A program made the translations under genes and the position numbers. A stretch of 64,000 bases of DNA from Alphaproteobacteria bacterium (lineage in GTDB: Bacteria; Pseudomonadota; Alphaproteobacteria; UBA828): NCBI GenBank assembly GCA_965220745.1, contig CBDCQT010000012.1, forward strand, positions 160,001-224,000, read 5' to 3'. Shown in pieces: positions 3,209 to 61,870 of this stretch. The notes beneath the pieces were generated by a model. That model saw nothing but the letters and a program-made list of their open reading frames with translations, searched no databases and was not told the DNA's origin. The number at the start of each line of letters is the position of its first letter. Position 1 is the first letter of the stretch.

Positions 3209-3324
3209 TGCGTCTTTACTCCCTGGTGTGTCCTCTTGGAATCTCAATCGAACCGGTCACCCACCCACGCCGGCGAAGGCCAGGGCGGCTGCCGTGCGGT
3301 AGCGCTCTACCCTGCGCTGAGATG

Positions 3325-3624
3325 CTAGTCCAAGGTTTCTCCGGTGTGACGGTGCCAGCGGAGCTTAAAGATCTCCCACTCGCCCTCTTCCCTGCTCGAT
3401 ACCCGTATGTTGTGGTACTTGAGCGGTTTGCCTCGGCCTTGCATCTCCGCCACAACCCATTCCTGGTGAGGTCGATCGATCACAAGGCAATACTTCCCCT
3501 CAATGGCCTCACCACGCATCCTGTTCAGCAGGCGGATGACTTCCGGCGGCTGAATTCCCACCGGCTGATTCCTGATGTGGTCGATCCACTTCCGATCCTG
3601 TTCGCCAATTTGATATCGCGTCAT
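3325..3624 (-). CDS. dmfA1: N,N-dimethylformamidase small (alpha) subunit-like protein
   Basis: About 99 aa directly upstream of the large subunit; RLLNRMRG...GKYCLV...PHQEW...EWEIFKLRW pattern. Confidence 0.7.
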   Translation of the reverse strand: MTRYQIGEQDRKWIDHIRNQPVGIQPPEVIRLLNRMRGEAIEGKYCLVIDRPHQEWVVAEMQGRGKPLKYHNIRVSSREEGEWEIFKLRWHRHTGETLD

Positions 3625-4049
3625 GGTGGTCACGGCGGAGGTCTCCCTGGGTTCCACTCACCTAGAGCACGCAGGAAATGTATCATGGACGCGCGGCGCA
3701 GGTCACCAGCATCATTGGTGCTGCGCCGGGTCTTGGTAGGGAGCGATTGCACCAAGCGCGTTTGCAGTTGAAGACGCCGCACGCCGCGCATTCAGTGGCC
3801 ATCTATCGAACGGCTGGCGGGCCAAACGGAATAAATGTATTGTCGGCTGCGATAGGCATGGCGGTTTCGGTACGAGGGAAGAATCGCGCTTCGATAAGAA
3901 GTTTTGTCTCTGCGTCAGCGGATTGCGCTATGCCTGCCGTACCACATTTGGGCCTGCTGCGAGGGCTCCAAACGAAGGAGATACGCTCGGCGCTCCGAAA
4001 GCAGCGGGACTAAACGGGAGCCCTACCAACCAATCATGAGAGATGCGCC

Positions 4050-4496
4050 ATGAAGCAAATCAGCTACGTAATCCAATTTCGCGGCACTGCAGGCCCCAAA
4101 GAAGGGGAGGAAGGGGTACTCCGGGCAAGAACCACCGGGGCGTCCGCCTCTATCACGACGAACATCAACGACAGCGGCGTCGACGCCGCGATCGAATCCA
4201 TCGCGGGCAACGATGCGTCCTTCGAGTCGGATGTCTTCCCGAATGAGGACGGTTCCTTCACGGAGTCGGGGGTCATCAACTTTGGAGGCGGCAACGGCTT
4301 CACCTTCAGCACACGCGGCAAGGGCGCGATGGGGCCGAGCGCAGACGAGAACTTGACCCACGGCGGAATCTGCTGGCAGGTCGATGCCGGCACCGGCATC
4401 TTCAATGGCGCCACCGGGATCATCACCTCGAATTTTACGGTGAGCGGCGCCGGCGAAGTCGTCGACAATCAGTGGGGCGTTATCTTCCTGAAGTAG
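4050..4496 (+). CDS. hypothetical beta-rich protein, possibly a dirigent/allene-oxide-cyclase-like barrel
   Basis: 148 aa with coding-like codon use; WQVDAGTGIFNGATGII resembles the GGTG-x-F-x-GA-x-G motif. Confidence 0.6.
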   Translation: MKQISYVIQFRGTAGPKEGEEGVLRARTTGASASITTNINDSGVDAAIESIAGNDASFESDVFPNEDGSFTESGVINFGGGNGFTFSTRGKGAMGPSADENLTHGGICWQVDAGTGIFNGATGIITSNFTVSGAGEVVDNQWGVIFLK

Positions 4497-4678: not shown

Positions 4679-6766
4679 CTAGCCGCTCGGGATAATCAAG
4701 GCATCGAGCGCGAGAGCGCCTTGGCCCTTCGGCAGGACGAGAAACGGATTGATGTCGATACTCTCGATCCGGTCGGCATATTCATGAGCGAATGCCGATA
4801 GTCGCGAGAGCGCTTCGGCGAGTGCATCGACATCTGACGGCTCCGCGCCGTGAGCGCCATCAAGCAGCGGGAAGCCCTTGACCTCGCGTAGCATCTCATG
4901 CGCCTCCTCGACGCCGAACGGCGCCAGACGTTGAGTCACATCGCCCAATAATTCAACGAATATGCCACCGAGCCCGAAGAGGACGACTGGCCCAAACACC
5001 GGGTCGCGCTTAACTCCAAGGATGGTTTCGACGCCGCCCGATATCATTGGCGCCACGACGACTCCATCGACTTTGGCGTCCGGTCGCGCCATCTTCGCGA
5101 GCTCAATCAGGGTGTCGTAGGCCTCCCGCGCCGCAGCTTCATCAGGGACATCGAGAAGCACGCCCCCGATTTCCGATCTGTGCGGAATGTTGGCAGAGGC
5201 GAGTTTCATCGCGACCGGAAAGCCGATTTCGGCTGCCCAAATCCCGGCCTCACCTGCCGACGTAGCCAAACATTCGTCAACCACGGGAATACCGGCCCCA
5301 GCAAGGATATGCATTGCCTCGACTTCGTTCGGCATCTCAGCCGGAAGATCGACTGGTACAGGGAGCGATGATGGCGCCGGCTGGTCCGCCTTCGCATACC
5401 TCTGCCCGAATTGAATTAAGGCCGCGGCCGCCCTGACGGCACGTGTCGGCTCTGGAATGACGAGATAGTTCAGGCCGTCAAATACCTGCCATGCTTCTTC
5501 GTCCATGGTAACCGAAATGATGATCGCTGCCGCCGGATACCTTTCGCGTATTCGGATCAGCCCCGTTCTGCGCAGGAATTCGATCGACGTCATGCCAGCG
5601 AAATACACGATGATCACATCATACTCGCCCTCTTCGATCATGACGTTGAGGCAGTGCTCAACAATTTCAGGCTGATTCACGGCTTGGCCGGTGATATCTA
5701 CCGGATTGCGAGTCCCCGCAAACGGAATGACGTCCTTGATTTTCGCTTGTGCTGCCACCGACAGACGGGCGACGTCGAGGCCAAGACTAACCGCATGATC
5801 GGACATAAGAATACCAACACCGCCCGAGATCGTGACAAAACCAATACGGTTTCCGGCCGGGAACAGACCGCCGGTGCAGGCATAACCGATGTCGAAAAAC
5901 TCATCCATCGTGTGGGCACGGTAGGCGTTGAATTTCTTGAGGACGGTATCGACCACGCTATCCGAACCGGCGAGTGAATCGGTGTGCGATAAGGCGGCTT
6001 CGGCGCCAACATCAGAACTGCCGACTTTCATCGCAACAACAGGTTTTTGCGCCTTCTTCGCTGCTTCCAAGCCCGCCATGAGTTTCGCGCCATCGCGGCT
6101 TGCCTCGAAATACATCAAGATCACTCTGGTTTCGGAATCACCGACATAGTAGTCTAGGCAGTCAGCGACGTTCACATCCGACTCGTTTCCCGTGGTCGCC
6201 CAAAGCCTGACGCCAAGGTGTCGTTGGCGTGCCTCCGCGTAGGTGACGCTGCCATAAGCCCCACTTTGACTGACAACGCTGACAGGCCCCAACTTCGGCG
6301 GCAGATTCATCATCGATACGCCAAAGGTGATGATCATATTGTGATCGAAGGCGGCGATGCCCATGCAGTTCGGGCCGACGATCCGCATTCCCGCATCGTC
6401 TGCAATCCGCCGCATATCGCTCTGCGTCTTGCGACCTTCATCGCCGGTTTCGGCAAACCCTGAACTGAATATGACGACTGCCTTGACGCCTTTTTCTGCG
6501 CATTCGCAGATCGCCGGCAACACGGCAGTTGCGGGCAGGACAATTAACGCCAAATCTACTTCGTTCTCGACGTCGAGGATCGACTTGTAGGCCCTCAAAC
6601 CTTGAACTTCTAAACGGTTCGGATTGATCGGATAAATGGGGCCATCAAACTCATAGTGTTTGAGGTATCTGAGTGGTCGACCCCCGATCTTGTTCTCGTC
6701 TGAGGAAGCTCCCAAGATCGCCACCGATCTCGGCCGAAACACCGCCTCCAAGGAAGCCCGGCTCAC
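4679..6766 (-). CDS. acetate--CoA ligase family (ADP-forming acyl-CoA synthetase), fused alpha/beta
   Basis: FRPRSVAILGAS, VGPNCMG, SQSGA, phospho-His site ALSHTDSLAG, ATP-grasp IPHRSEIGGV, IDINPF. Probable GTG start 6766. Confidence 0.9.
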   Translation of the reverse strand: MSRASLEAVFRPRSVAILGASSDENKIGGRPLRYLKHYEFDGPIYPINPNRLEVQGLRAYKSILDVENEVDLALIVLPATAVLPAICECAEKGVKAVVIFSSGFAETGDEGRKTQSDMRRIADDAGMRIVGPNCMGIAAFDHNMIITFGVSMMNLPPKLGPVSVVSQSGAYGSVTYAEARQRHLGVRLWATTGNESDVNVADCLDYYVGDSETRVILMYFEASRDGAKLMAGLEAAKKAQKPVVAMKVGSSDVGAEAALSHTDSLAGSDSVVDTVLKKFNAYRAHTMDEFFDIGYACTGGLFPAGNRIGFVTISGGVGILMSDHAVSLGLDVARLSVAAQAKIKDVIPFAGTRNPVDITGQAVNQPEIVEHCLNVMIEEGEYDVIIVYFAGMTSIEFLRRTGLIRIRERYPAAAIIISVTMDEEAWQVFDGLNYLVIPEPTRAVRAAAALIQFGQRYAKADQPAPSSLPVPVDLPAEMPNEVEAMHILAGAGIPVVDECLATSAGEAGIWAAEIGFPVAMKLASANIPHRSEIGGVLLDVPDEAAAREAYDTLIELAKMARPDAKVDGVVVAPMISGGVETILGVKRDPVFGPVVLFGLGGIFVELLGDVTQRLAPFGVEEAHEMLREVKGFPLLDGAHGAEPSDVDALAEALSRLSAFAHEYADRIESIDINPFLVLPKGQGALALDALIIPSG

Positions 6767-6886: not shown

Positions 6887-8431
6887 TTAAGGACGCACCG
6901 GGAAACTCGTTGGGCCCTTCAGGTGCGGGAGCAGCGGCTGAACGCGGGCGATCCAGTCGCAGAGCACCGGGCGGGTTTCGCGCGGATCGATGAGGTCGTG
7001 GAAGGAAAAACTCTCCGCGCGAGGCACCGGCGACTGCCGCGCCAGCATCTCCTCTTCAAGCCGTTCGCGCTCGGCAATGGGGTCGTCAGCCTTGGCGATC
7101 TGACGGCCGAAGGCAACCGCCACGCCGCCCTCGACCGGGATTGCGCCAATTTTGGCTGAGGGCCAGGCGACGACGAAGCCGTCCGGGCCGAAATGCGCGG
7201 CCTCGGCAACGCCATGCGCCGTGCGCACGATCACCGACGCCCAGGGCACCACCGAGCTCGCCGCCGCGAGCACGGCGGCCGTGCCGAAACGGATCGTGCC
7301 GGCCTTTTCTGCTTCTGTGCCGATCATGAAGCCGGGCTCGTCGACCAGGCTTACGATGGGCAGGTGGAAGGTGTCGCAGAGCTCGATGAAGCGGCGCGTC
7401 TTCTGGGAGCCCGCCGCGGTCATGGCCCCGGCCAGGTGCCAGCAGTCGTTGGCGAGCACGCCGACCGGCTGGCCCGCGAGCCGGGCGAGGCCGGTGATCG
7501 TGCCTTGCCCGTAGAGGCGCCCGATCTCGAAGAACGAGCCCTCGTCCAGCACCAGCGCGATCACGCGCCGCATGTCATAGAGTTTGCGCCGGTTGCGCGG
7601 CACGATTTCGATCAGCTCCTCGGCGCGGCGAGCCGCTGGATCGTCGGCCGCCGTGCAGGGCGGGAGCTCCCAGACGTTCGGCGGCAAATAGCTGAGAAAG
7701 CGACGGATCTCGGCGAAGGCCGCGGGCTCGTCGGCGACCAGATTATCGACGACGCCGTTCCTAGCGTGCACCTCCGCGCCGCCGAGCGCCTCCTTGCTCG
7801 GGCGCCGGCCGAGCGCGCGCTCAACCACGGCGGGGCCCGCGACCAGAACCTGCGACGCCTCGGTCATCACCGAGAAGTGCGAGGCCACCAGGCGCGCCGC
7901 TGGCAGGCCCGCGACCGCGCCGAGCGCGGCCGAGGCGACAGGCACCGTGGCCATCGCCCTGGCCACGGAGGCGAAGCGCGGCGCGGCGTTGACCGGCGTG
8001 CCCACCGTCTTCGAGCCGGAGCCCGCGACGCTGCCGCCTGCGCCCTGATGCAGCCGCACCAGGGGCACGCGGTAGGTGCAGGCGAGCTCCTCCGCATAGA
8101 CACTCTTGCGCAGGCCGGCCTCGTTGGGCGAGCCGCCCCGGAGCGTGAAGTCCTCGCCGCCGATGACGCAGCGGCGCCCGTCCACCGTGCCGAAGCCGAG
8201 CACGAAGTTGGCCGGCGAGAAGTCTGTGAGCCGCCCTTCCTCGTCGCGGGTGGCATCGCCTGAGGCGCCGCCAAGCTCCTGAAACGAGCCACCGCCGAGC
8301 ATGGCGTCGATCCGCTCGCGGATCGTGAGCAGACCCTTGGCGTGCTGACGGGCGACGCCCTCCTCCCCGCCCTGGGCTTGCGCGAGCGCCCGCTTGCGCG
8401 CGAGCTCGTCGACCTCCCTCTCCCAGCTCAT
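6887..8431 (-). CDS. acyl-CoA carboxylase carboxyltransferase subunit
   Basis: QHAKGLLTIRERID, EDFTLRGGS, AGPAVV, GGAEVHARNGVVD, VDEPGFMIG, IDPRETR. Confidence 0.9.
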   Translation of the reverse strand: MSWEREVDELARKRALAQAQGGEEGVARQHAKGLLTIRERIDAMLGGGSFQELGGASGDATRDEEGRLTDFSPANFVLGFGTVDGRRCVIGGEDFTLRGGSPNEAGLRKSVYAEELACTYRVPLVRLHQGAGGSVAGSGSKTVGTPVNAAPRFASVARAMATVPVASAALGAVAGLPAARLVASHFSVMTEASQVLVAGPAVVERALGRRPSKEALGGAEVHARNGVVDNLVADEPAAFAEIRRFLSYLPPNVWELPPCTAADDPAARRAEELIEIVPRNRRKLYDMRRVIALVLDEGSFFEIGRLYGQGTITGLARLAGQPVGVLANDCWHLAGAMTAAGSQKTRRFIELCDTFHLPIVSLVDEPGFMIGTEAEKAGTIRFGTAAVLAAASSVVPWASVIVRTAHGVAEAAHFGPDGFVVAWPSAKIGAIPVEGGVAVAFGRQIAKADDPIAERERLEEEMLARQSPVPRAESFSFHDLIDPRETRPVLCDWIARVQPLLPHLKGPTSFPVRP

Positions 8432-8783
8432 GCGGGGCTTACGAGGGCCTCACCCGACGACGCTGTTTGTCGTCGTCGGGTGTTAACGGCACTCGTCCTC
8501 TCCTCGTTGTGCCGTATTGTGGGTGTCCGTGGGCTCCCTGAAGCGATCCTGACACACGACGAACGCGTGCGTCTTTGTCGGTGCCTCGCCCAGCGGCAAG
8601 CGATCGCCGGGATCACTCAGCTGCATTCACTCCCCCTGCGTAACCGCTAGTGTCATTGGCGAACAAGCTGCAGAGGCTGCGCCCACCACTTATCCTTGCC
8701 AGGTACTCAAACGGCGGCACGCAGTCATGAATGTCTCAAAGGCTGAACAGACGCGGTGCTGCCCGAAATACCTTGCCTCAGGC

Positions 8784-9257
8784 TCAGCCCGAAGGGCCTT
8801 TTCCTTCCATAACGGGGCCCCGGTTGAAGGGTTCGCTGCCGTCGTGCATCCAGCCGTGATACCGGGGTAGTTCGTCTACAGTATCGAACCACTCGATCCG
8901 CTCGTCCGTCCAAATGTGAAATTGCGGAACCAAGGCGTCGGGGTCGTCCGTCGTGCTGATGAAAACCTCGATCAGGTCCCCGCCGAGTTCCTCTACGTAC
9001 CCCTCCCACGTGAGCGGAGTCCCACACTTGCCGCAAAAGCCACGCCTGATACCCGGCGATGACTCATAGATATTCCGCTCTTCGCCCGTCCAGGTGATCT
9101 CGCTCTTGAGATAACCTACGAGCGCAGCCACCACGGCGCCTGTGTGGCTCCTGCATGACTTGCAGTGGCAATAGACGACGGCGTGCGCTTCAGGGGCTTC
9201 ATAGCGAACCGCGCCGCACATGCAGCCTCCGGTAACCTTGTCAGGACCACTCCCCAT
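8784..9257 (-). CDS. GFA family (glutathione-dependent formaldehyde-activating enzyme-like) protein
   Basis: GGCMCGAVRY, CHCKSCR, RGFCGKCGTPL Zn-binding motifs; ATG 9257 with an AGGAGG RBS. Confidence 0.88.
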   Translation of the reverse strand: MGSGPDKVTGGCMCGAVRYEAPEAHAVVYCHCKSCRSHTGAVVAALVGYLKSEITWTGEERNIYESSPGIRRGFCGKCGTPLTWEGYVEELGGDLIEVFISTTDDPDALVPQFHIWTDERIEWFDTVDELPRYHGWMHDGSEPFNRGPVMEGKGPSG

Positions 9258-55711: not shown

Positions 55712-57815
55712 GTTGTCTCCCTTTCCCTCGTTGGGTCTTCGCATCAACCAGAGATCCACCCCCAGCGCGGAGCATAGCCGCGCCAAAACGGGCGTTCAAG
55801 CCGACCACGCCCGCCGCCAAGTGCCGACACGCCCCGTGAAGGAAGATGTCCGCGGCCGGACGTTCTCGGGAAAGCAACCGCCGCGCGCCGTTGCATAAAG
55901 CTGCACGCTCCGACAACCTGACGTTCGAGAATGCCTCGGCCTTGCTGTTGACAACCCGAATACGAGTGCCTCGAGTCAGGTGTTTGAACCGATCGCACTA
56001 CCATCCAAGATTAGGTTCCATACTGCACCTCAATACTCCGCTGGTCGGCAAGATCGGGGAACGTCCCTGTTCCGGGCTTCGTCCTGGTTGGTATGGTTGG
56101 CGGTGGATCGGGGATTTGGAACAGGTGTTCGGGTCTGTCGTTGTAGGCGTGTGCGCGCAGCAGCCCGGCCCTGTGCCATCTGTGTACCGTGTCGTCGGAC
56201 CCTCCGAGCCGGTCAGCGGCTTCCAAGGCCGTCAACAGCCCGCGTTCGCGCAGCCGGTCACGGCGGGTCTTGAGAGCGTAGTTGACCCGGACCACCTTCA
56301 CCGATATCGGGTCGAAGGCGTGGCCGTGTCCGGTTCGGTACCCGCGCCGGTTGAGGATCGCTGCGATCTCGCCCTCGGTGTGATCGTTCAACAGCCTGTC
56401 GACCTCGGCGACGACCTCGTCGCTGGTCTTGGTGAGCTGGGAAGGGTGAGGGTCCGGCGTCCAGGTGATCTGTCGGGTCGCGCCGCCGCGCAGGCGCACC
56501 CCGAGGCTCCGCGTGGCCTTGGTCAGGGTCACGTCCTCGATCAGCAGCCGCGCCATCCGCTTGCGCTCGCGGTGCGGCGTCGCCGGATCGTTCCACAGGC
56601 GCGGGAAGTCGCTGGCCAGGGCGAGGATTCGCTCGCGTTGCGCGTCGTCCAACCCCTGGCCCGGTTCGGCGCGGCTGCGCTCGCGCTGGGCCTCGTCGAG
56701 TGCGCGAAGCTTCGCGTTCCACTCCGCCTCCAGCACGTCGGCCACCATCCGGTTGTCGGGATGGGTCTGCATGAACCGCTGGCGGGCCAGGTCGGCTTCC
56801 TCGCGGGCGCGCTGCACCCGCTGGGCGCGCCACAGATCCGCCTCTCCGGCGCGCGCGGCGAGTTCGTCCTGCACCTGCAACGCGACGTCCAGCGTGAGCG
56901 GTGTCATCAGCTCGACCAGCAGCGCGCCGACCGCCCGGTCGATGGCGCCGCCGGATATGCTCTGGCAATTCTCCGCGCTCGCCGTCTCGACCCTTTCGCG
57001 ATTACACAGGTACTGGGGGCTTTGTTGCCCTTTTACGGTTCGGTAGCGCACCGTCATGTTCCTGCCGCACACGCTGCAGATCGCCAGGCCCTGCAGCAGC
57101 GCGGACCCTTCGCGCGGGGCGCCGCGTCGCTCCGCCGCGGCGTGCGCATGGGCATTGTCCCGGAGCTGGCGCTGGTTCTGCTCGAAGCGCTCCCAGGTGA
57201 TGTAGCCCGGGTGGGCATCGCGCAGCAGCACCGTCCATTCCTCTCGCGGAACGCTTCTGGTCTCGACACCGCCGCCGGGACGGCGCCGGCTGCGGCTGCG
57301 CCCGTACGCGAAAGCGCCGGCGTATCGCGGGTTGTGCAGAAGCCCGCACACGCGCGAGAACCTCAGGGGTTTCCAATGCAGTTCACCGCTGTGGAGCCCG
57401 CCTTGAGGACGGTACGGAAACAGCAGCTTCTCGTTGTTGAAATGCCTGACCGTGGCGCTGGCCGAGCCGGTCCGCGTGAAGGTGTCGAATATCAGGCGCA
57501 GACTGTGCTGCACCTGCTCGTCGGGGTCGAGCGCCACGTTGCCGAGCGGGTCGTAGACCAGCCCCACCGGCAGCGACACCTTCAACTCCCCGCGCCTGGC
57601 CTTGGCCAGCACTCCGCCACGCAGCCGGATGCGCATCATGTGCAGCTCCGCTTCCGACATGGTCCCTTTGAGCCCATATGTAGGACAGCCCGCTATGTCG
57701 GGCAGCATGCGCAACCTACTGTCAACACGAGCTTTTTCTCCAAGCTGTCTGACATAATTTTCTCGGTGCGATTCGTCTGACATGACGTCATCTCCACGAG
57801 TACTGGAGGTGAATC

Positions 57816-59060
57816 ATGTTCGAAACTCTCTACAAGGACCCCGCCACCATCGACAGATATCGGCTTGCGCCCCTGTTGGAGGATCGCGAACGGTATCTGT
57901 GCGCCGTGCTCGCCTCGGGTGCGGTCGTTGAGGTCGCACGCCGGGTCGCGCGTGCTCAGCTCGCCCTCATCGATCTGCTGAACCTGCCCGATGCCGACGT
58001 TCCGGTCGATTTTGCGGCGGTAGAGGCGGCTGTTCAGGAGTGGTGTCGGAACGTTCCCGCAGTTTCGGCCGCGAATTTCCGGCGCCATGCCTTTCGCTGG
58101 CTGCGTTTCCTCGGCTGGCTGGAAGAGCCGGTTGGGAATGCCCATCCGCACGCCCGGCAGGTGGAGGCTTTCGCCGCCTGGATGCGGGACGACCGGGGGC
58201 TGTCCGAAGCGACCATCGGCAACTGCTGCTACGAGAGCGACCGTCTCTTTGCCTGGGCAGCAGGCAGGAACCTGATGCTCGCCGACATGACGATCGGCGA
58301 CGTCGACGAGTTCCTTGCCGCGCGGATTGCCGACGGAGGTCTTCGTCGAACGTCCGCGCGCGCCGCGGCCGGGTGTCTGCGCAGCTTTTTCCGTTTCGCC
58401 GAAACGCGGAACTGGTGCCGGTCGGGCATCGCCGGGTGCATCATGCCGCCGCTGGCCTATCCCGACCGACCGGTTCCCAAGGGGTTCGATCACGACGAAG
58501 TCGAGAGGCTGCTCGCCACGACGGAGGGTTCGACCCCGGCAGACGTTGGCGACCGTGCGGTGCTGACGATCCTTGCAACCTGCGGGCTCAGGGCCGGCGA
58601 AGTTGGCGCTCTGCGCGTCGAGGACATCGACTGGGAGCGGGACAAGCTGCGCGTGTTCCGTCCCAAGACCGGCCGAACCGACACCTTCCCGCTCACCCCC
58701 TCCGTCGGCAACGCGTTGATGGACTATCTCCTCAAGGTGCGCCCGGAGGCGGGACGGGAGCGGGCCTTGTTCCTGACGTTGCAGGCTCCGTTCAGGCCGC
58801 TGACGAGCAGCGCCATAGGGATGATCGTCCGCAGCCGCGCGAACCGCCTTGGCATCACCGGCAAGCGCCTGGGCGCCCATGCGCTTCGCCATGCGGCGGC
58901 ACAGCGGCTGGTCGACGAGGGGTGCGGACTCAAGACCGTCGGCGACTTCCTCGGCCATTCCAGCCCGAGCGCGACGGCCGCATACGCAAAGATCGATCTC
59001 GCCTCGCTTCGCCCGGTCGCCGACATCTGCCTGAAGGAGCTGCTCGATGACGCTGCGTGA
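57816..59060 (+). CDS. RIT tyrosine recombinase A
   Basis: GLRAGEV, RPKTGR, HALRH, LGH, TAAYAK. Confidence 0.9.
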   Translation: MFETLYKDPATIDRYRLAPLLEDRERYLCAVLASGAVVEVARRVARAQLALIDLLNLPDADVPVDFAAVEAAVQEWCRNVPAVSAANFRRHAFRWLRFLGWLEEPVGNAHPHARQVEAFAAWMRDDRGLSEATIGNCCYESDRLFAWAAGRNLMLADMTIGDVDEFLAARIADGGLRRTSARAAAGCLRSFFRFAETRNWCRSGIAGCIMPPLAYPDRPVPKGFDHDEVERLLATTEGSTPADVGDRAVLTILATCGLRAGEVGALRVEDIDWERDKLRVFRPKTGRTDTFPLTPSVGNALMDYLLKVRPEAGRERALFLTLQAPFRPLTSSAIGMIVRSRANRLGITGKRLGAHALRHAAAQRLVDEGCGLKTVGDFLGHSSPSATAAYAKIDLASLRPVADICLKELLDDAA

Positions 59061-60036
59061 GGCCGTTGACCGCTATGTTGCGTGGCAGCGCGACCACGGC
59101 GCCAAGTTCCGCTCAAGCGCCGAGACCCTCGATACCTTCTGTCGCCGGATCGGAGAGGACAGGGACTGTGACACGGTGGGCGAGGATGAAGTCCGCCGCT
59201 TCCTTGCCGGCAAGGGGACGCTCACGAGAACACGCGCCGTAAAATACGGAACGCTTGCCGGGTTCTACGGCTTCGCGCTGAGCCGGAGCCATGTGAGTTG
59301 CATGCCCATGCCGCCGCGGGAGGCGGAACCGCGGCCGCCCGAGGTCGCGCCGCCCTTCATCTTCACTCATGAGGAATTGCGGCGCCTGTTCAAGTCGGCA
59401 GGCGGGGGCCGCAGGCGTTGCCTCAAGCTCGATATCGAGACCTTCCGGACATTCCTGCTCCTGCTCTACGGCGCCGGACTGCGCTCCGGAGAAGCGCGGC
59501 GACTGAGCGTGGCGGACGTGGACCTGGACTCCGCGGTGCTCGCGGTGAACGACACGAAGTTCTACAAGAGCCGTCTCGTGCCGGTCGGCGCCGACCTCGC
59601 CGGCATGCTTCGCCGATACGCCGCCATCCGGACACAGCGCCCCCTCCCCGAGGGATCGGCATCCACCTTCCTCGCCTGCCGCGACGGGACGCCGCTGAAA
59701 AAGGCCATCGTACGTCACGCCTTCCATAAGACGCTTCGGGCGGCCGGAATCGAGAACAGAAAACCCGGATGCCGGGCGCCCTGCCTGCATTCGCTGCGCC
59801 ATAGCTTTGCCACCCATCGCCTGACCTCCTGGCATCGCGAGGGGGCCGACGTTCAACGGCTCCTGCCGGCGCTTTCGACCTACCTCGGCCACGGCAGCGT
59901 GGCAGCGACGCAGGTCTACATATCGATGACCCCGGACTTGCTCGACGAGGCCAGCCGCCGGTTCGAGCGCTACGTTGAGCACAACCCAGGCCCGGATGCC
60001 GGGCAGCATCGGAAAGGGGGTACAAGCCATGCCTGA
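59047..60036 (+). CDS. RIT tyrosine recombinase B
   Basis: GLRSGE, TKFYKSRLVP, HSLRHSFA, LSTYLGH, TQVY. Confidence 0.92.
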   Translation: MTLREAVDRYVAWQRDHGAKFRSSAETLDTFCRRIGEDRDCDTVGEDEVRRFLAGKGTLTRTRAVKYGTLAGFYGFALSRSHVSCMPMPPREAEPRPPEVAPPFIFTHEELRRLFKSAGGGRRRCLKLDIETFRTFLLLLYGAGLRSGEARRLSVADVDLDSAVLAVNDTKFYKSRLVPVGADLAGMLRRYAAIRTQRPLPEGSASTFLACRDGTPLKKAIVRHAFHKTLRAAGIENRKPGCRAPCLHSLRHSFATHRLTSWHREGADVQRLLPALSTYLGHGSVAATQVYISMTPDLLDEASRRFERYVEHNPGPDAGQHRKGGTSHA

Positions 60037-61030
60037 ACGCAGCTCCGCTCTCGGCACATGGATCAAGCGCTTCCTCTTGGAGTATCTCCCGACCGAGCGC
60101 AATCTGGCGGTCAATACCTTGAAGAGTTATCGCGACGGCCTGACGCTGCTGTTGCCCTTCGTGGCCGAGCGCTGCGGCAAGGCAGTGGAGCGGCTCGCGG
60201 TCGAAGATCTGTCCGCCGACCGCGTGACGGCCTTTCTCGGCCACCTGGAACGGGAACGGGGCTGCTCGGCGCAGACCCGCAACCTGCGCCTTACAGCGAT
60301 CCGCTCCTTCGCCCGCTACGTCGCGGTGCGCGACGCCGCACTTGTCGAATGGGCCGGCAGCATCCGCGCCATTCCGCTCAAGAAAACGGTGCGGCCCCGG
60401 ATCGTCTGGCTGTCGGCGGAGAACATGGACGCCATGATCGCCGGGCCGGACAGGCGCACCGTAGCAGGGCGGGTCGAGCACGCCCTTCTCCTGTTCCTCT
60501 ACAACACCGGGGCGAGAGCCTCCGAGGCGGCGGGACTGCAGGTGGAGGATCTGCATCTCCCGGAACGCACGGGCGAAAACGCGCGTGCAACGATCCATGG
60601 CAAGGGAGGAAAGGTCCGCGTCACGCCGATCTGGACGAGCACCGCCAAGGCCCTCGCCGCTCTCTCCAGGGACCGCCCACCCGGCTGCGGGAGCATCTTC
60701 TGGAGCCGGCATCGCAAGCCCTACACCCGGCATGGAATCATCGAACTCGTGGAGCGTGCCGCCGCTCGCGTGCCGGAACTCAAGGGGCAGAAGATCACGC
60801 CGCACGTGCTGCGGCACAGCTGCGCCTGTCACCTGCTTCGCTCCGGCATCGACATCAACACCATTCGTGCCTGGCTCGGTCACGTCTCCCTCGCGACCAC
60901 CAACATCTACGCCGAGGTCGATCTCAAGGCGAAGGAAGAGGCGATGAAATCCACCTGCCCCGGCGATCCCGGGGACAAGCCGCGATGGAAGGCACGAGGT
61001 GGCCTGCTCGAACAGCTGAAGGCAATCTGA
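60029..61030 (+). CDS. RIT tyrosine recombinase C
   Basis: NTLKSYRD, TRNLRLTAIRSF, YNTGARASE, HGKGGK, PHVLRHS, WLGHVSLATTNIY. Confidence 0.92.
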   Translation: MPERSSALGTWIKRFLLEYLPTERNLAVNTLKSYRDGLTLLLPFVAERCGKAVERLAVEDLSADRVTAFLGHLERERGCSAQTRNLRLTAIRSFARYVAVRDAALVEWAGSIRAIPLKKTVRPRIVWLSAENMDAMIAGPDRRTVAGRVEHALLLFLYNTGARASEAAGLQVEDLHLPERTGENARATIHGKGGKVRVTPIWTSTAKALAALSRDRPPGCGSIFWSRHRKPYTRHGIIELVERAAARVPELKGQKITPHVLRHSCACHLLRSGIDINTIRAWLGHVSLATTNIYAEVDLKAKEEAMKSTCPGDPGDKPRWKARGGLLEQLKAI

Positions 61031-61561
61031 ACGACAAATATTATGTCGGGCAGTCCGGCGAATAATCTCGTGTTGACAGTGGGTTGCGCATGCTGCCCGA
61101 CATAGCGGGCTGTACTACATATGGGCTCTTATGTGGGCCATGACATAAGAGCCCGAGCAGTAGCCGATCATTGAAGTCGCCGGGGTCGTAGACGCCGTCC
61201 TCGTCGAGGATCAGCGTCTCGCTCAGGGCGCAGATCTCAAGCAGGCGGTGCCACTCGGTAGAGTTGCGCGCGAGGCGGCTGACCTCGAGCCCGAGCACGA
61301 TCCCGGCCCGGCCCATGCCGACCTCGGCGACCAGGCGCTGGAATCCCTCGCGGTCCCTGTCGGCGCCGGAGAGACCGAGATCGCTGTCGATCACGACGAT
61401 GCTCTCGCTCGGCCAGCCCAGCGCCACCGCCCGCTCCCGCAGCGCGTACTGGCGGCGCGTGCTCTCGCCATGCTCGAACACCTGACGCGGGGTGGACTGA
61501 CGCACGTACAGGTAGGCATCGCGGCTCAGGTGGTTCGCGGCCACCTTCTGGTGAGCGGGGT

Positions 61562-61870
61562 TCATGCGGCTTCCCTCCCCATATGGCCCCTGAGCATCGC
61601 GAGCAGAATGTCGATCACCGGCCTTTCGACGTCGGCGGGCAGCGGCTCCGGGGAAGCGCCGCCGCAAACGGCAGCCGGCGGGGCGGGCAGTTCGGCGAAG
61701 GCATGCAGCCAGGCCGCGACGCCGCGCAGCGCCACCACGGCGAGCCCGTGGCGACCGTGGCCGGCGCCGGGCTCGACGGCATGACGGCGCATCCGCTCGT
61801 AACCGTGCCCGTAGGCGGAATGCTCCGCCGCGGGGAGCGCGGCGCATGGCGGCGGGCTGTGCATCGTCAT
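61562..61870 (-). CDS. hypothetical protein of the serine-recombinase element
   Basis: 102 aa; YERMRR...GLAVVALRGVAAW; ATGA overlaps on both sides. Confidence 0.7.
   Translation of the reverse strand: MTMHSPPPCAALPAAEHSAYGHGYERMRRHAVEPGAGHGRHGLAVVALRGVAAWLHAFAELPAPPAAVCGGASPEPLPADVERPVIDILLAMLRGHMGREAA

Follow-up and report, generated by a model that had tools for sequence, protein, structure and literature searches.

The window analyzed here, a 64,000-nucleotide (64-kb) stretch of an alphaproteobacterial genome of the GTDB lineage UBA828 (contig CBDCQT010000012.1, positions 160,001 to 224,000 of the forward strand), carries a mobile element of the RIT family. Three overlapping genes on the same strand, each encoding an Xer-like tyrosine recombinase, lie between terminal inverted repeats, and this arrangement identifies it as a RIT element, an ordinary member of its family. 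ritA (57816-59060, + strand) encodes a protein of 414 amino acids (aa) with Phage_integrase and SAM_1 domains. It is followed by ritB (59047-60036, +; 329 aa, Phage_integrase), which overlaps it by 14 bp, and by ritC (60029-61030, +; 333 aa from the ATG at 60029, Phage_integrase plus SAM_1/SAM_4), which overlaps ritB by 8 bp and whose open reading frame is listed from a TTG at 59975. There is no fourth gene between the repeats. The catalytic signature R..HxxR..Y is intact in all three proteins (HALRH in RitA, HSLRH in RitB, and HVLRH in RitC, with LGH..Y in each). Their best score against XerC/XerD is 161.8 bits, where the cut-off is 335, and against the NCBIfam family GmtY they reach 27 to 29 bits, where it is 340. 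RitA has about 116 extra residues N-terminal to its SAM_1 domain, and RitC has about 35 residues beyond the catalytic tyrosine; for RIT elements, Smyshlyaev 2021 (PMC8138268) describes a second core-binding domain in RitA and an extra C-terminal helix in RitC. In a comparison that covered unannotated trios only, RitA was 47% identical to a Mesorhizobium plasmid trio sited beside an IS66 transposase fragment. The element is present once in its own genome.

What do the ends of this element look like? The left junction reads cccttt, GAGCCC (57670-57675), and ATATGT (57676-57681). The right end reads ACATAT (61117-61122), GGGCTC (61123-61128), TTATGT (61129-61134), the eight-nucleotide segment N8 (GGGCCATG, 61135-61142), ACATAA (61143-61148), and GAGCCC (61149-61154), followed by gagcag. 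We refer to the three hexamers as S, at the simple end (57670-57675), I, the inner one (61123-61128), and O, at the junction of the module with the flank (61149-61154). S is a direct repeat of O and is inverted relative to I. Between I and O lies a 20-bp module, TTATGT-GGGCCATG-ACATAA (61129-61148), which can be read as two back-to-back recombinase boxes, and I forms the spacer of a full core site, ACATAT-GGGCTC-TTATGT. Hexamers and module together make up a 12-8-12 inverted repeat, the arms of which (61123-61134 and 61143-61154) are 100% complementary in a repeat search. Rereading the sequence confirmed every coordinate of the junctions, hexamers, and module, including the three hexamer copies, one of them inverted at 61123-61128, that a preliminary description of this DNA had pointed out.

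The terminal repeats themselves contain further boxes. The left one (57676-57761, +) begins with a tip box, ATATGTAGGACAG, at 57676, has a second box, CTATGTCGGGCAG, at 57693 (a 17-bp offset from the tip box), and holds an inverted box-like sequence, CTGTCTGACATAA, found by eye at 57745-57757. The right one (61037-61122, -) has a tip box ending at 61122 (ACATAT), a second box at 61093-61105, and an inverted box, TTATGTCGGGCAG, at 61041. With their six outermost bases, which are hexamers S and I, the repeats span 57670-57761 and 61037-61128 (92 nucleotides [nt], 88% complementary).

Perfect palindromes with 12-nt arms and spacers of 0 to 20 occur at four distinct places in the window (six hits). 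Of 20 block shuffles of the window, 18 had no such palindrome and two had one. The 12-8-12 palindrome is non-random, though not the sole one of its kind in the window, and it owes its significance to its conservation in other elements. Nor is the junction an assembly artefact peculiar to the window record: in run X18, which is possibly from the same sample as the window, a contig from a separate assembly spans 61082-61223 with 0 differences.

The end module across RIT elements

The module belongs to the RIT element and, in the sets examined, is conserved at RIT ends in general. Genome contigs scanned with RitA as the seed yielded 43 loci, 13 of them close (83 to 89% RitA identity) and drawn from several proteobacterial metagenome-assembled genomes (MAGs) and one Ruegeria isolate. 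Twelve of the 13 close loci have the module, laid out as flank-O-(T/C)TATGT-N8-ACATA(A/G)-I-(A/T)TATGT-inverted repeat (IR), and the opposite end, where visible, reads flank-S-(A/T)TATGT-IR. L033 shows a simple end only; its partner end was searched for and not found. The inner spacer of L036 is 7 bp long. More distant RITs from the same genus or from MAGs (35 to 57% protein identity) have the module in five of five cases, as do L227 and L230; they keep the layout, but some arms differ (e.g., AGATGT or ATATGT). Four plasmid loci came from cultured strains. The module is present in Sagittula p4, with all three hexamers equal, and a variant with arms TTATGG/CCATAA is found in P. phytofirmans pOLGA1; the other two are the Mesorhizobium locus and a Haematobacter locus, in which a repeat search turned up none.

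How far does this layout extend? The signature YTATGT-N8-ACATAR-N6-WTATGTNG, in which the tip box WTATGTNG is itself part of the search pattern, matched at least 120 stretches in a metagenome scan and, among the matches listed, at least 86 module ends on at least 80 loci. A second box, which the pattern did not require, lies 17 bp further inward in 87 of 96 other ends. The consensus of the module box is TTATGTGGTG and that of the tip box is TTATGTGGCG. Among 401 genomes of the window's own class, the pattern matched once, in its own genome (0 of the 400 others), and a reversed-pattern control gave 0 matches. The preliminary description had proposed three hexamer sites, each beside an (A/T)TATGT box; the inner one is a complete box-6 bp-box core, and the layout is kept across RIT clades.

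One might argue that the palindrome is incidental, being a terminator, a target-derived sequence, or an artefact of assembly, and the window does hold other perfect 12-nt palindromes. That idea has practically no chance of being correct. The module is missing from empty sites (described below) and travels with the element to different flanks; in genome G045, it is identical in five copies with five different flanks. Its recurrence at 98 ends with RIT boxes, the bridging contig, and the scan of class genomes complete the refutation.

Empty sites and the three hexamers

The RIT splits a gene for a large serine recombinase that runs on the - strand. That gene's C-terminal part (56011-57669, -; Recombinase and Zn_ribbon_recom domains by Pfam) lies to the left of the element, and the N-terminal part (61155-61847, -; Resolvase domain by Pfam) lies to the right. 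The reading frame of the target runs on from 61155 across one hexamer, and removing 57676-61154 restores it. The empty target 18-mer is absent from the window itself (0 matches with up to 2 mismatches allowed). In uninterrupted homologues from same-genus genomes, exactly one hexamer and no module stands between the flanks in six of six cases (GGCCTC, GGCCTC, GGACTT, GGGCTT, GGGCTC, and GGGCTG), and all six hexamers code for the Gly-Leu of DFNDRLLLGLKGTMSEAE. The empty target cccttt-GAGCCC-gagcag, deduced earlier from the window alone, has an exact reverse complement in the empty site of L236, CTGCTC-GGGCTC-AAAGGG. Since the six empty homologues carry a single hexamer, the mobile unit is 57676-61154 (equivalently, 57670-61148), a length of 3,479 bp that counts one hexamer and takes in the 20-bp module and the inner hexamer.

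The target gene has some features of its own. It is multicopy in several same-genus relatives, with 3 to 4 near-identical copies per genome, and in run X18 its contig depth is about 14-fold that of the RIT. The interrupted serine recombinase probably belongs to another mobile element. A weak MerR-like match at its C terminus falls short of the cut-off. In L041, the target gene is broken again just past the simple end of the RIT by a hairpin-like repeat, GAGCTAATGGAGCGCACTCCATTAGCTC, which is possibly the end of another small element. One joint that bypasses the element, running from 57669 to 61149, was found and rejected as a trace of excision: it has 9 differences in 75 bases and the same roughly 14-fold depth, which identify it as a diverged paralogous copy of the empty gene.

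Where does the inner hexamer come from? In 98 unique module ends, I was compared with the reverse complement (rc) of O. The two agree at all six positions in 45 ends, at five in 26, at four in 9, and at three or fewer in 18; the mean match is 4.86 of 6, against a mean of 1.72 and a maximum of 2.12 in 2000 permutations. Mismatches pile up at the central positions, 3 and 4 (26 of 44). The third hexamer can be added for complete elements, of which there are 29, 22 of them with a single module. All three hexamers are equal (O = rc(I) = S) in 9 of these 22, the window included. In the others, O equals S and I differs (2/22), O equals rc(I) and S differs (4/22), rc(I) equals S and O differs (1/22), or all three are different (6/22). 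The perfect 12-8-12 repeat of the window is the common special case of three coinciding hexamers. I and S mismatch at 18 of 132 positions, compared with 3 of 264 in the adjoining 12-nt IR tips (12-fold; Fisher p = 5e-7). With a mismatch rate so far above that of the repeat tips, the hexamers behave as exchangeable overlaps rather than slowly decaying copies would.

These comparisons bear on the two origins that the preliminary description had offered for the inner hexamer. If it were copied from each target, rc(O) should equal I, which it does in only 45 of 98 ends, and all three hexamers differ in the 6 elements just mentioned. If it were a fixed, built-in address, it should not vary among the five near-identical copies in G045, in which it reads CAGTCC three times, CATTCC once, and CAGCCC once. 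The suggestion of three crossover sites was reasonable; both proposed origins of the inner hexamer were too simple. In G029, a genome of the same genus, a close relative of the window element has GGCATG as its O, which would code for Gly-Met where the six empty sites code for Gly-Leu, and this hexamer must therefore have arrived with the element. The I of L037 is GGCATG as well.

Module side and the route of movement

The five copies in G045 allow the hexamers and the module to be followed from site to site. The tip-to-tip length is 3,447 bp for copies a, b, and c and 5,585 bp for d and e; a and c are identical at 3447/3447 positions, and d and e are identical at 5585/5585. Copies a, b, and d have the module next to ritA, and copies c and e have it next to ritC. 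All five share GGACTG as O despite their differing flanks, while S tracks the flank (CAGCCC, GAACAC, CAGCCC, CAAACC, and CAGTCC in a to e). I takes three forms among these near-identical copies (CATTCC, CAGCCC, CAGTCC, CAGTCC, and CAGTCC, in the same order), and that of copy b, CAGCCC, is the S of copies a and c. The greater length of d and e (L040 and L043) is due to an identical 2,138-bp insertion in the interval between the repeat and ritA, about 116 to 125 bp from the ritA-side tip; the insertion is common to two copies with modules on opposite sides.

Both module sides are found well beyond G045. The module adjoins ritA in 31 ends, with 3 more scored as 'B', and ritC in 22, a gene being assignable in 58 of 99 ends. 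Copies that are 100% identical carry it on opposite sides, always at different genomic sites, and none of the loci was found in more than one orientation. For insertions of the window element's lineage into the motif ..DRLLLG(L/I).., inspected by eye in the window, L032, L034 to L039, L041, L043, L044, and G029, the module is always on the N-terminal flank, whichever rit gene adjoins it. This rule is what one would expect if both cores bore hexamers pointing the same way relative to the module and if homology between hexamers set the alignment of element and target. Copy d of G045 separates the hexamer from its arms: its flanking arms look canonical one way, its hexamer matches that of the element (4/6) only the other way, and the element is inserted in the orientation given by the hexamer. 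Being target-like, and with a polarity that predicts orientation, the hexamers do contribute to the choice of site and orientation.

How might such an element move? We propose that the module is a pair of back-to-back recombinase boxes, that the hexamers are crossover spacers, and that the excised form has two usable, inverted cores, a reading we consider evenly poised between right and wrong. What the sequences show is the layout of the ends, its conservation, the empty sites, the variation of the hexamers, and the switching of sides; the excised form, the cleavage positions, and the binding of Rit proteins to their sites are the parts that we infer. The module boxes would be of the same kind as those recurring at the tips of the two terminal repeats and would face outward to the hexamers, each of which would serve as the 6-bp overlap of a tyrosine recombinase core site. 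In the integrated state, I (61123-61128) would be the 6-bp centre of a full core, between the IR-tip box and the module box, and O (61149-61154) and S (57670-57675) would be half-sites fused to target DNA. Recombination between the direct repeats O and S would free the element and leave one hexamer in the target. The joined ends would then form a long palindrome, IR-hexamer-module-hexamer-IR, in which two full cores face each other in inverted orientation across 8 bp, and either core might cross with a target bearing a similar hexamer. The core that is used would split into a new O and a new S, of which one would keep the hexamer of the element and the other would take that of the target; the unused core would persist intact as I.

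Several of the observations would follow from such a scheme. (i) With either core usable, the module could come to adjoin ritA or ritC. (ii) With the unused core kept as I, the inner hexamer would be a carried-over record of an earlier joint. (iii) With one element hexamer and one target hexamer at the new junctions, the hexamers would be similar but often not identical. (iv) The polarity of the hexamers would determine which target flank receives the module.

A number of points weigh against this proposal. No excised or joined form was seen in the public runs, from which only assembled contigs were used. The orientation of N8 relative to the genes is not fixed, which means that in situ inversion or other events would also be needed, and in the family that inserts in toprim genes, ritA-side and ritC-side modules have the same outside-to-inside N8. 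The junction that keeps the element's hexamer is inconsistent: the hexamer closer to I is O in seven elements (four of which come from one genome) and S in three, with one tie. Elements with two modules (seven) and with none (L241) need an extra process, which would be recombination between copies. Family-specific covariation of module boxes and tip boxes is marginal, with 1.99 to 2.02 matches of 4, where permutations averaged 1.77 and reached at most 2.0. Finally, the metagenome sample was chosen for having the module and many of its loci are related, so that the counts overstate independence.

No inversion or circle joint was present among the contig pieces listed, with 612 more beyond the list, a negative that does not bear on whether such forms exist. 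One candidate joint was considered and set aside. L137 starts with ACATAT-TTGAGG-TTATGT-GGTGCACC-ACATAA-CCTCAA-ATATGT, a perfect palindrome of 44 nt within its first 48 bases in which both hexamers are flanked by tip-like arms. Only 10 bases precede it and there is no partner repeat, and it is not usable as evidence.

Could the third site serve instead as a switch in place? The preliminary description had suggested that the three-gene cassette inverts between 57670 and 61123. In the strong form of this idea, inversion from S to I would be the main role of the third site, and transposition would use O and S only. I and S, at a distance of 3.4 kb, are indeed full or half cores in inverted orientation, and identical copies do carry the module on either side, an observation that alternate crossover use in the excised form fits equally well. 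In the toprim family, ritA-side modules (L104, L176, and L227) and a ritC-side one (L109) share the outside-to-inside N8 GCAGTTGA, as inversion predicts. Yet no locus has been caught both ways, the side-differing copies all being at different genomic sites. Inversion alone would also leave unexplained the variation of I among identical copies and the identity of the I of copy b with the S of other copies. Moreover, the cassette is symmetrical to its repeats, and flipping it would have no obvious effect on expression. As the principal function of the third site, the switch is quite unlikely. In situ inversion between S and I, as the preliminary description proposed, probably occurs as well, or may be the main route by which the module changes sides. 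N8 follows no consistent orientation rule relative to module side (along the gene strand it reads GGGCCATG in the window and CATGCCCC in L034), and alternate core use and in situ inversion therefore cannot be separated by it. For the further suggestion that the 20-bp module flips on its own, no evidence was found, N8 orientation not being tied to module side; two sites 8 bp apart would be poorly placed to synapse together.

The folding of the module raises another question, namely, whether the intermediate is double stranded at all. Repeats and module might fold in a released single strand, with N8 as the loop and a stem that rebuilds one core, the hexamer J pairing with I. A single exchange with a double-stranded target would follow and replication would complete the process, giving the same end products as the palindromic joint proposed above. 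The module can form a 13-bp stem closed by a loop of 8 nt (minimum free energy, -14.3 kcal/mol; z = -2.69). A fold this good was reached by 2 of 200 shuffles, a modest statistic. N8 is the size of a loop and is fast evolving; 38 of 96 ends show it as a perfect palindrome, and in 69 of 96 it is self-complementary at six or more of its eight positions. I stays near the reverse complement of O, as pairing in a stem would favor, but in the 18 of 98 ends in which three or fewer positions match, the core of the stem would be badly mismatched. In Nielsen 2017 (PMC5737581), RIT DNA is reported to be protected from exonuclease, with no detectable circle junctions, and hairpin-structured intermediates are proposed; related SE elements are described as strand biased in PMC10214605. 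We consider this single-stranded route unlikely, though a serious contender.

The same proposal of exonuclease-resistant, hairpin-structured intermediates (PMC5737581) would also suit a linear form with covalently closed ends, made by cutting and sealing the palindrome in the manner of a telomere resolvase. The site is palindromic. The conserved variable spacers, however, are set 10 to 16 bp away from the axis of symmetry and do not straddle it, the boxes point to the hexamers and away from N8, and the palindrome is usually at one end only, as the 22 single-module elements among the 29 complete ones show. We regard closed hairpin ends as very improbable.

Composite and minimal forms, and related systems

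As mentioned, not all RITs have exactly one module. Seven elements (L034, L107, L111, L116, L118, L129, and L146) have modules at both ends. In four of them (L034, L116, L118, and L129), the two outer flanks are homologous to one another in inverted orientation, over 927 bp at 99.4% in L034, and where N8 is asymmetric (L034, L107, and L118), its one-strand reading is the same at both ends. At the other extreme, the Mesorhizobium plasmid element L241 has two simple ends with inverted identical hexamers and no module. Both forms would be expected if two inverted copies whose modules lie on opposite sides recombined with each other, and they suggest that RITs mediate inversions between copies. 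On the chromosome of the MAG G044, unpaired RIT tips lie at 869117(-), 888118(+), and 2284077(-), 19 kb and 1.4 Mb apart, the third being a simple end that adjoins a ritC remnant; these tips are consistent with large rearrangements between copies.

Some elements lack recombinase genes altogether. These mini-RITs, which resemble miniature inverted-repeat transposable elements (L114, 429 bp; L159, 436 bp; and L146, 465 bp), have repeat tips, module, and matching hexamers and are presumably mobilized in trans. One RIT subfamily inserts in DUF7146-Toprim_3 genes with the conserved flank ..GGTCGCCATGCTCGCCGG..|TCGGTC, at loci L244 (Sagittula p4), L224 and L223 (G035), L176, L109, L104, and L242. 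Its two perfect terminal repeats, about 1.05 to 1.14 kb long, each contain a full toprim gene, which makes a five-gene unit of toprim, ritABC, and toprim. In L244, the repeats are at 3253-4391 and 7725-8863. The G035 copies were tried as a second multicopy test and rejected: their trios, which lie between roughly 1.05-kb inverted repeats bearing toprim gene ends, are degenerate and lack RIT tips, which makes them unusable for hexamers.

How does this arrangement compare with known systems? In the attP(+) site of CTX phage and the attC sites of integrons, two inverted half or core sequences fold into a hairpin and recreate a recombinase site, and the enzymes are Xer-like "simple" tyrosine recombinases. 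These systems differ from RITs in using host XerCD or IntI and in having no terminal repeats around recombinase genes. Tn916 and CTnDOT tolerate nonidentical overlaps of 6 to 7 bp, with element and target contributing one junction sequence each. They differ in relying on one integrase together with Xis, in having arm-type sites, and in lacking a back-to-back double core. The window element is unlike Tn554 in its three Xer-like recombinases, the lack of a fourth gene, and its long terminal inverted repeats, and unlike SE/GInt elements in having three genes only and a GmtY score far under the cut-off. Neither Tn554 nor SE/GInt elements are known to have long terminal inverted repeats or a second inverted core site.

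The literature covered here comprises PMC10214605, PMC5737581, PMC3414803, PMC8138268, PMC2864759, and PMC10322971. RITs as described (Van Houdt 2009/2012; Ricker 2013) have three overlapping tyrosine recombinase genes in the order A-B-C, a length of about 3.5 kb, terminal inverted repeats, and insertions in mobile element genes, all of which the window element shares. Published targets are radC, IS66 tnpA, and the Tn6049 transposase gene (PMC2864759; PMC3414803), and published ends consist of a 28-9 bp inverted repeat plus an overlapping palindrome, 34-bp terminal repeats, or 47- to 51-bp imperfect palindromes. Like RITs, Tn554 and SE/GInt are transposons with multiple tyrosine recombinases; they carry 6 bp of donor flank to the new site and leave mismatched junction hexamers as a footprint (PMC10214605). 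Tn554 relies on TnpA/B/C, and SE/GInt have four proteins, Tfp/GinC and Srap/GinD among them (PMC10214605). A 2023 comparison lists the movement and target specificity of RITs as "not tested" (PMC10214605). The three-hexamer module, side switching, double-module and module-less forms, and the serine recombinase target motif were not found in the passages covered, and full-text searches turned up nothing on a three-hexamer module; this coverage does not include Ricker 2013 and supplements, where a prior description may exist.

Overall, the value of the finding lies in a testable mechanism, the element itself being an ordinary RIT. RITs are widespread, and the module, the three exchangeable spacers, the side switching, and the motif-specific targets make the question of their movement open to experiment. 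The signature given above finds RIT ends without chance matches in about 400 genomes and reveals nonautonomous mini-RITs and RIT-linked inversions that annotation currently misses. A fuller account, possible if somewhat doubtful, is that RITs move via a palindromic joint in which two inverted cores share one module, possibly as a single-strand hairpin, and that the hexamers are a logbook of the last target sites that steers target and orientation. If true, this would be a transposition logic undescribed for any tyrosine recombinase transposon, and it would explain how RITs home to conserved motifs in the genes of other mobile elements, such as those for serine recombinases, toprim proteins, and IS66 transposases.

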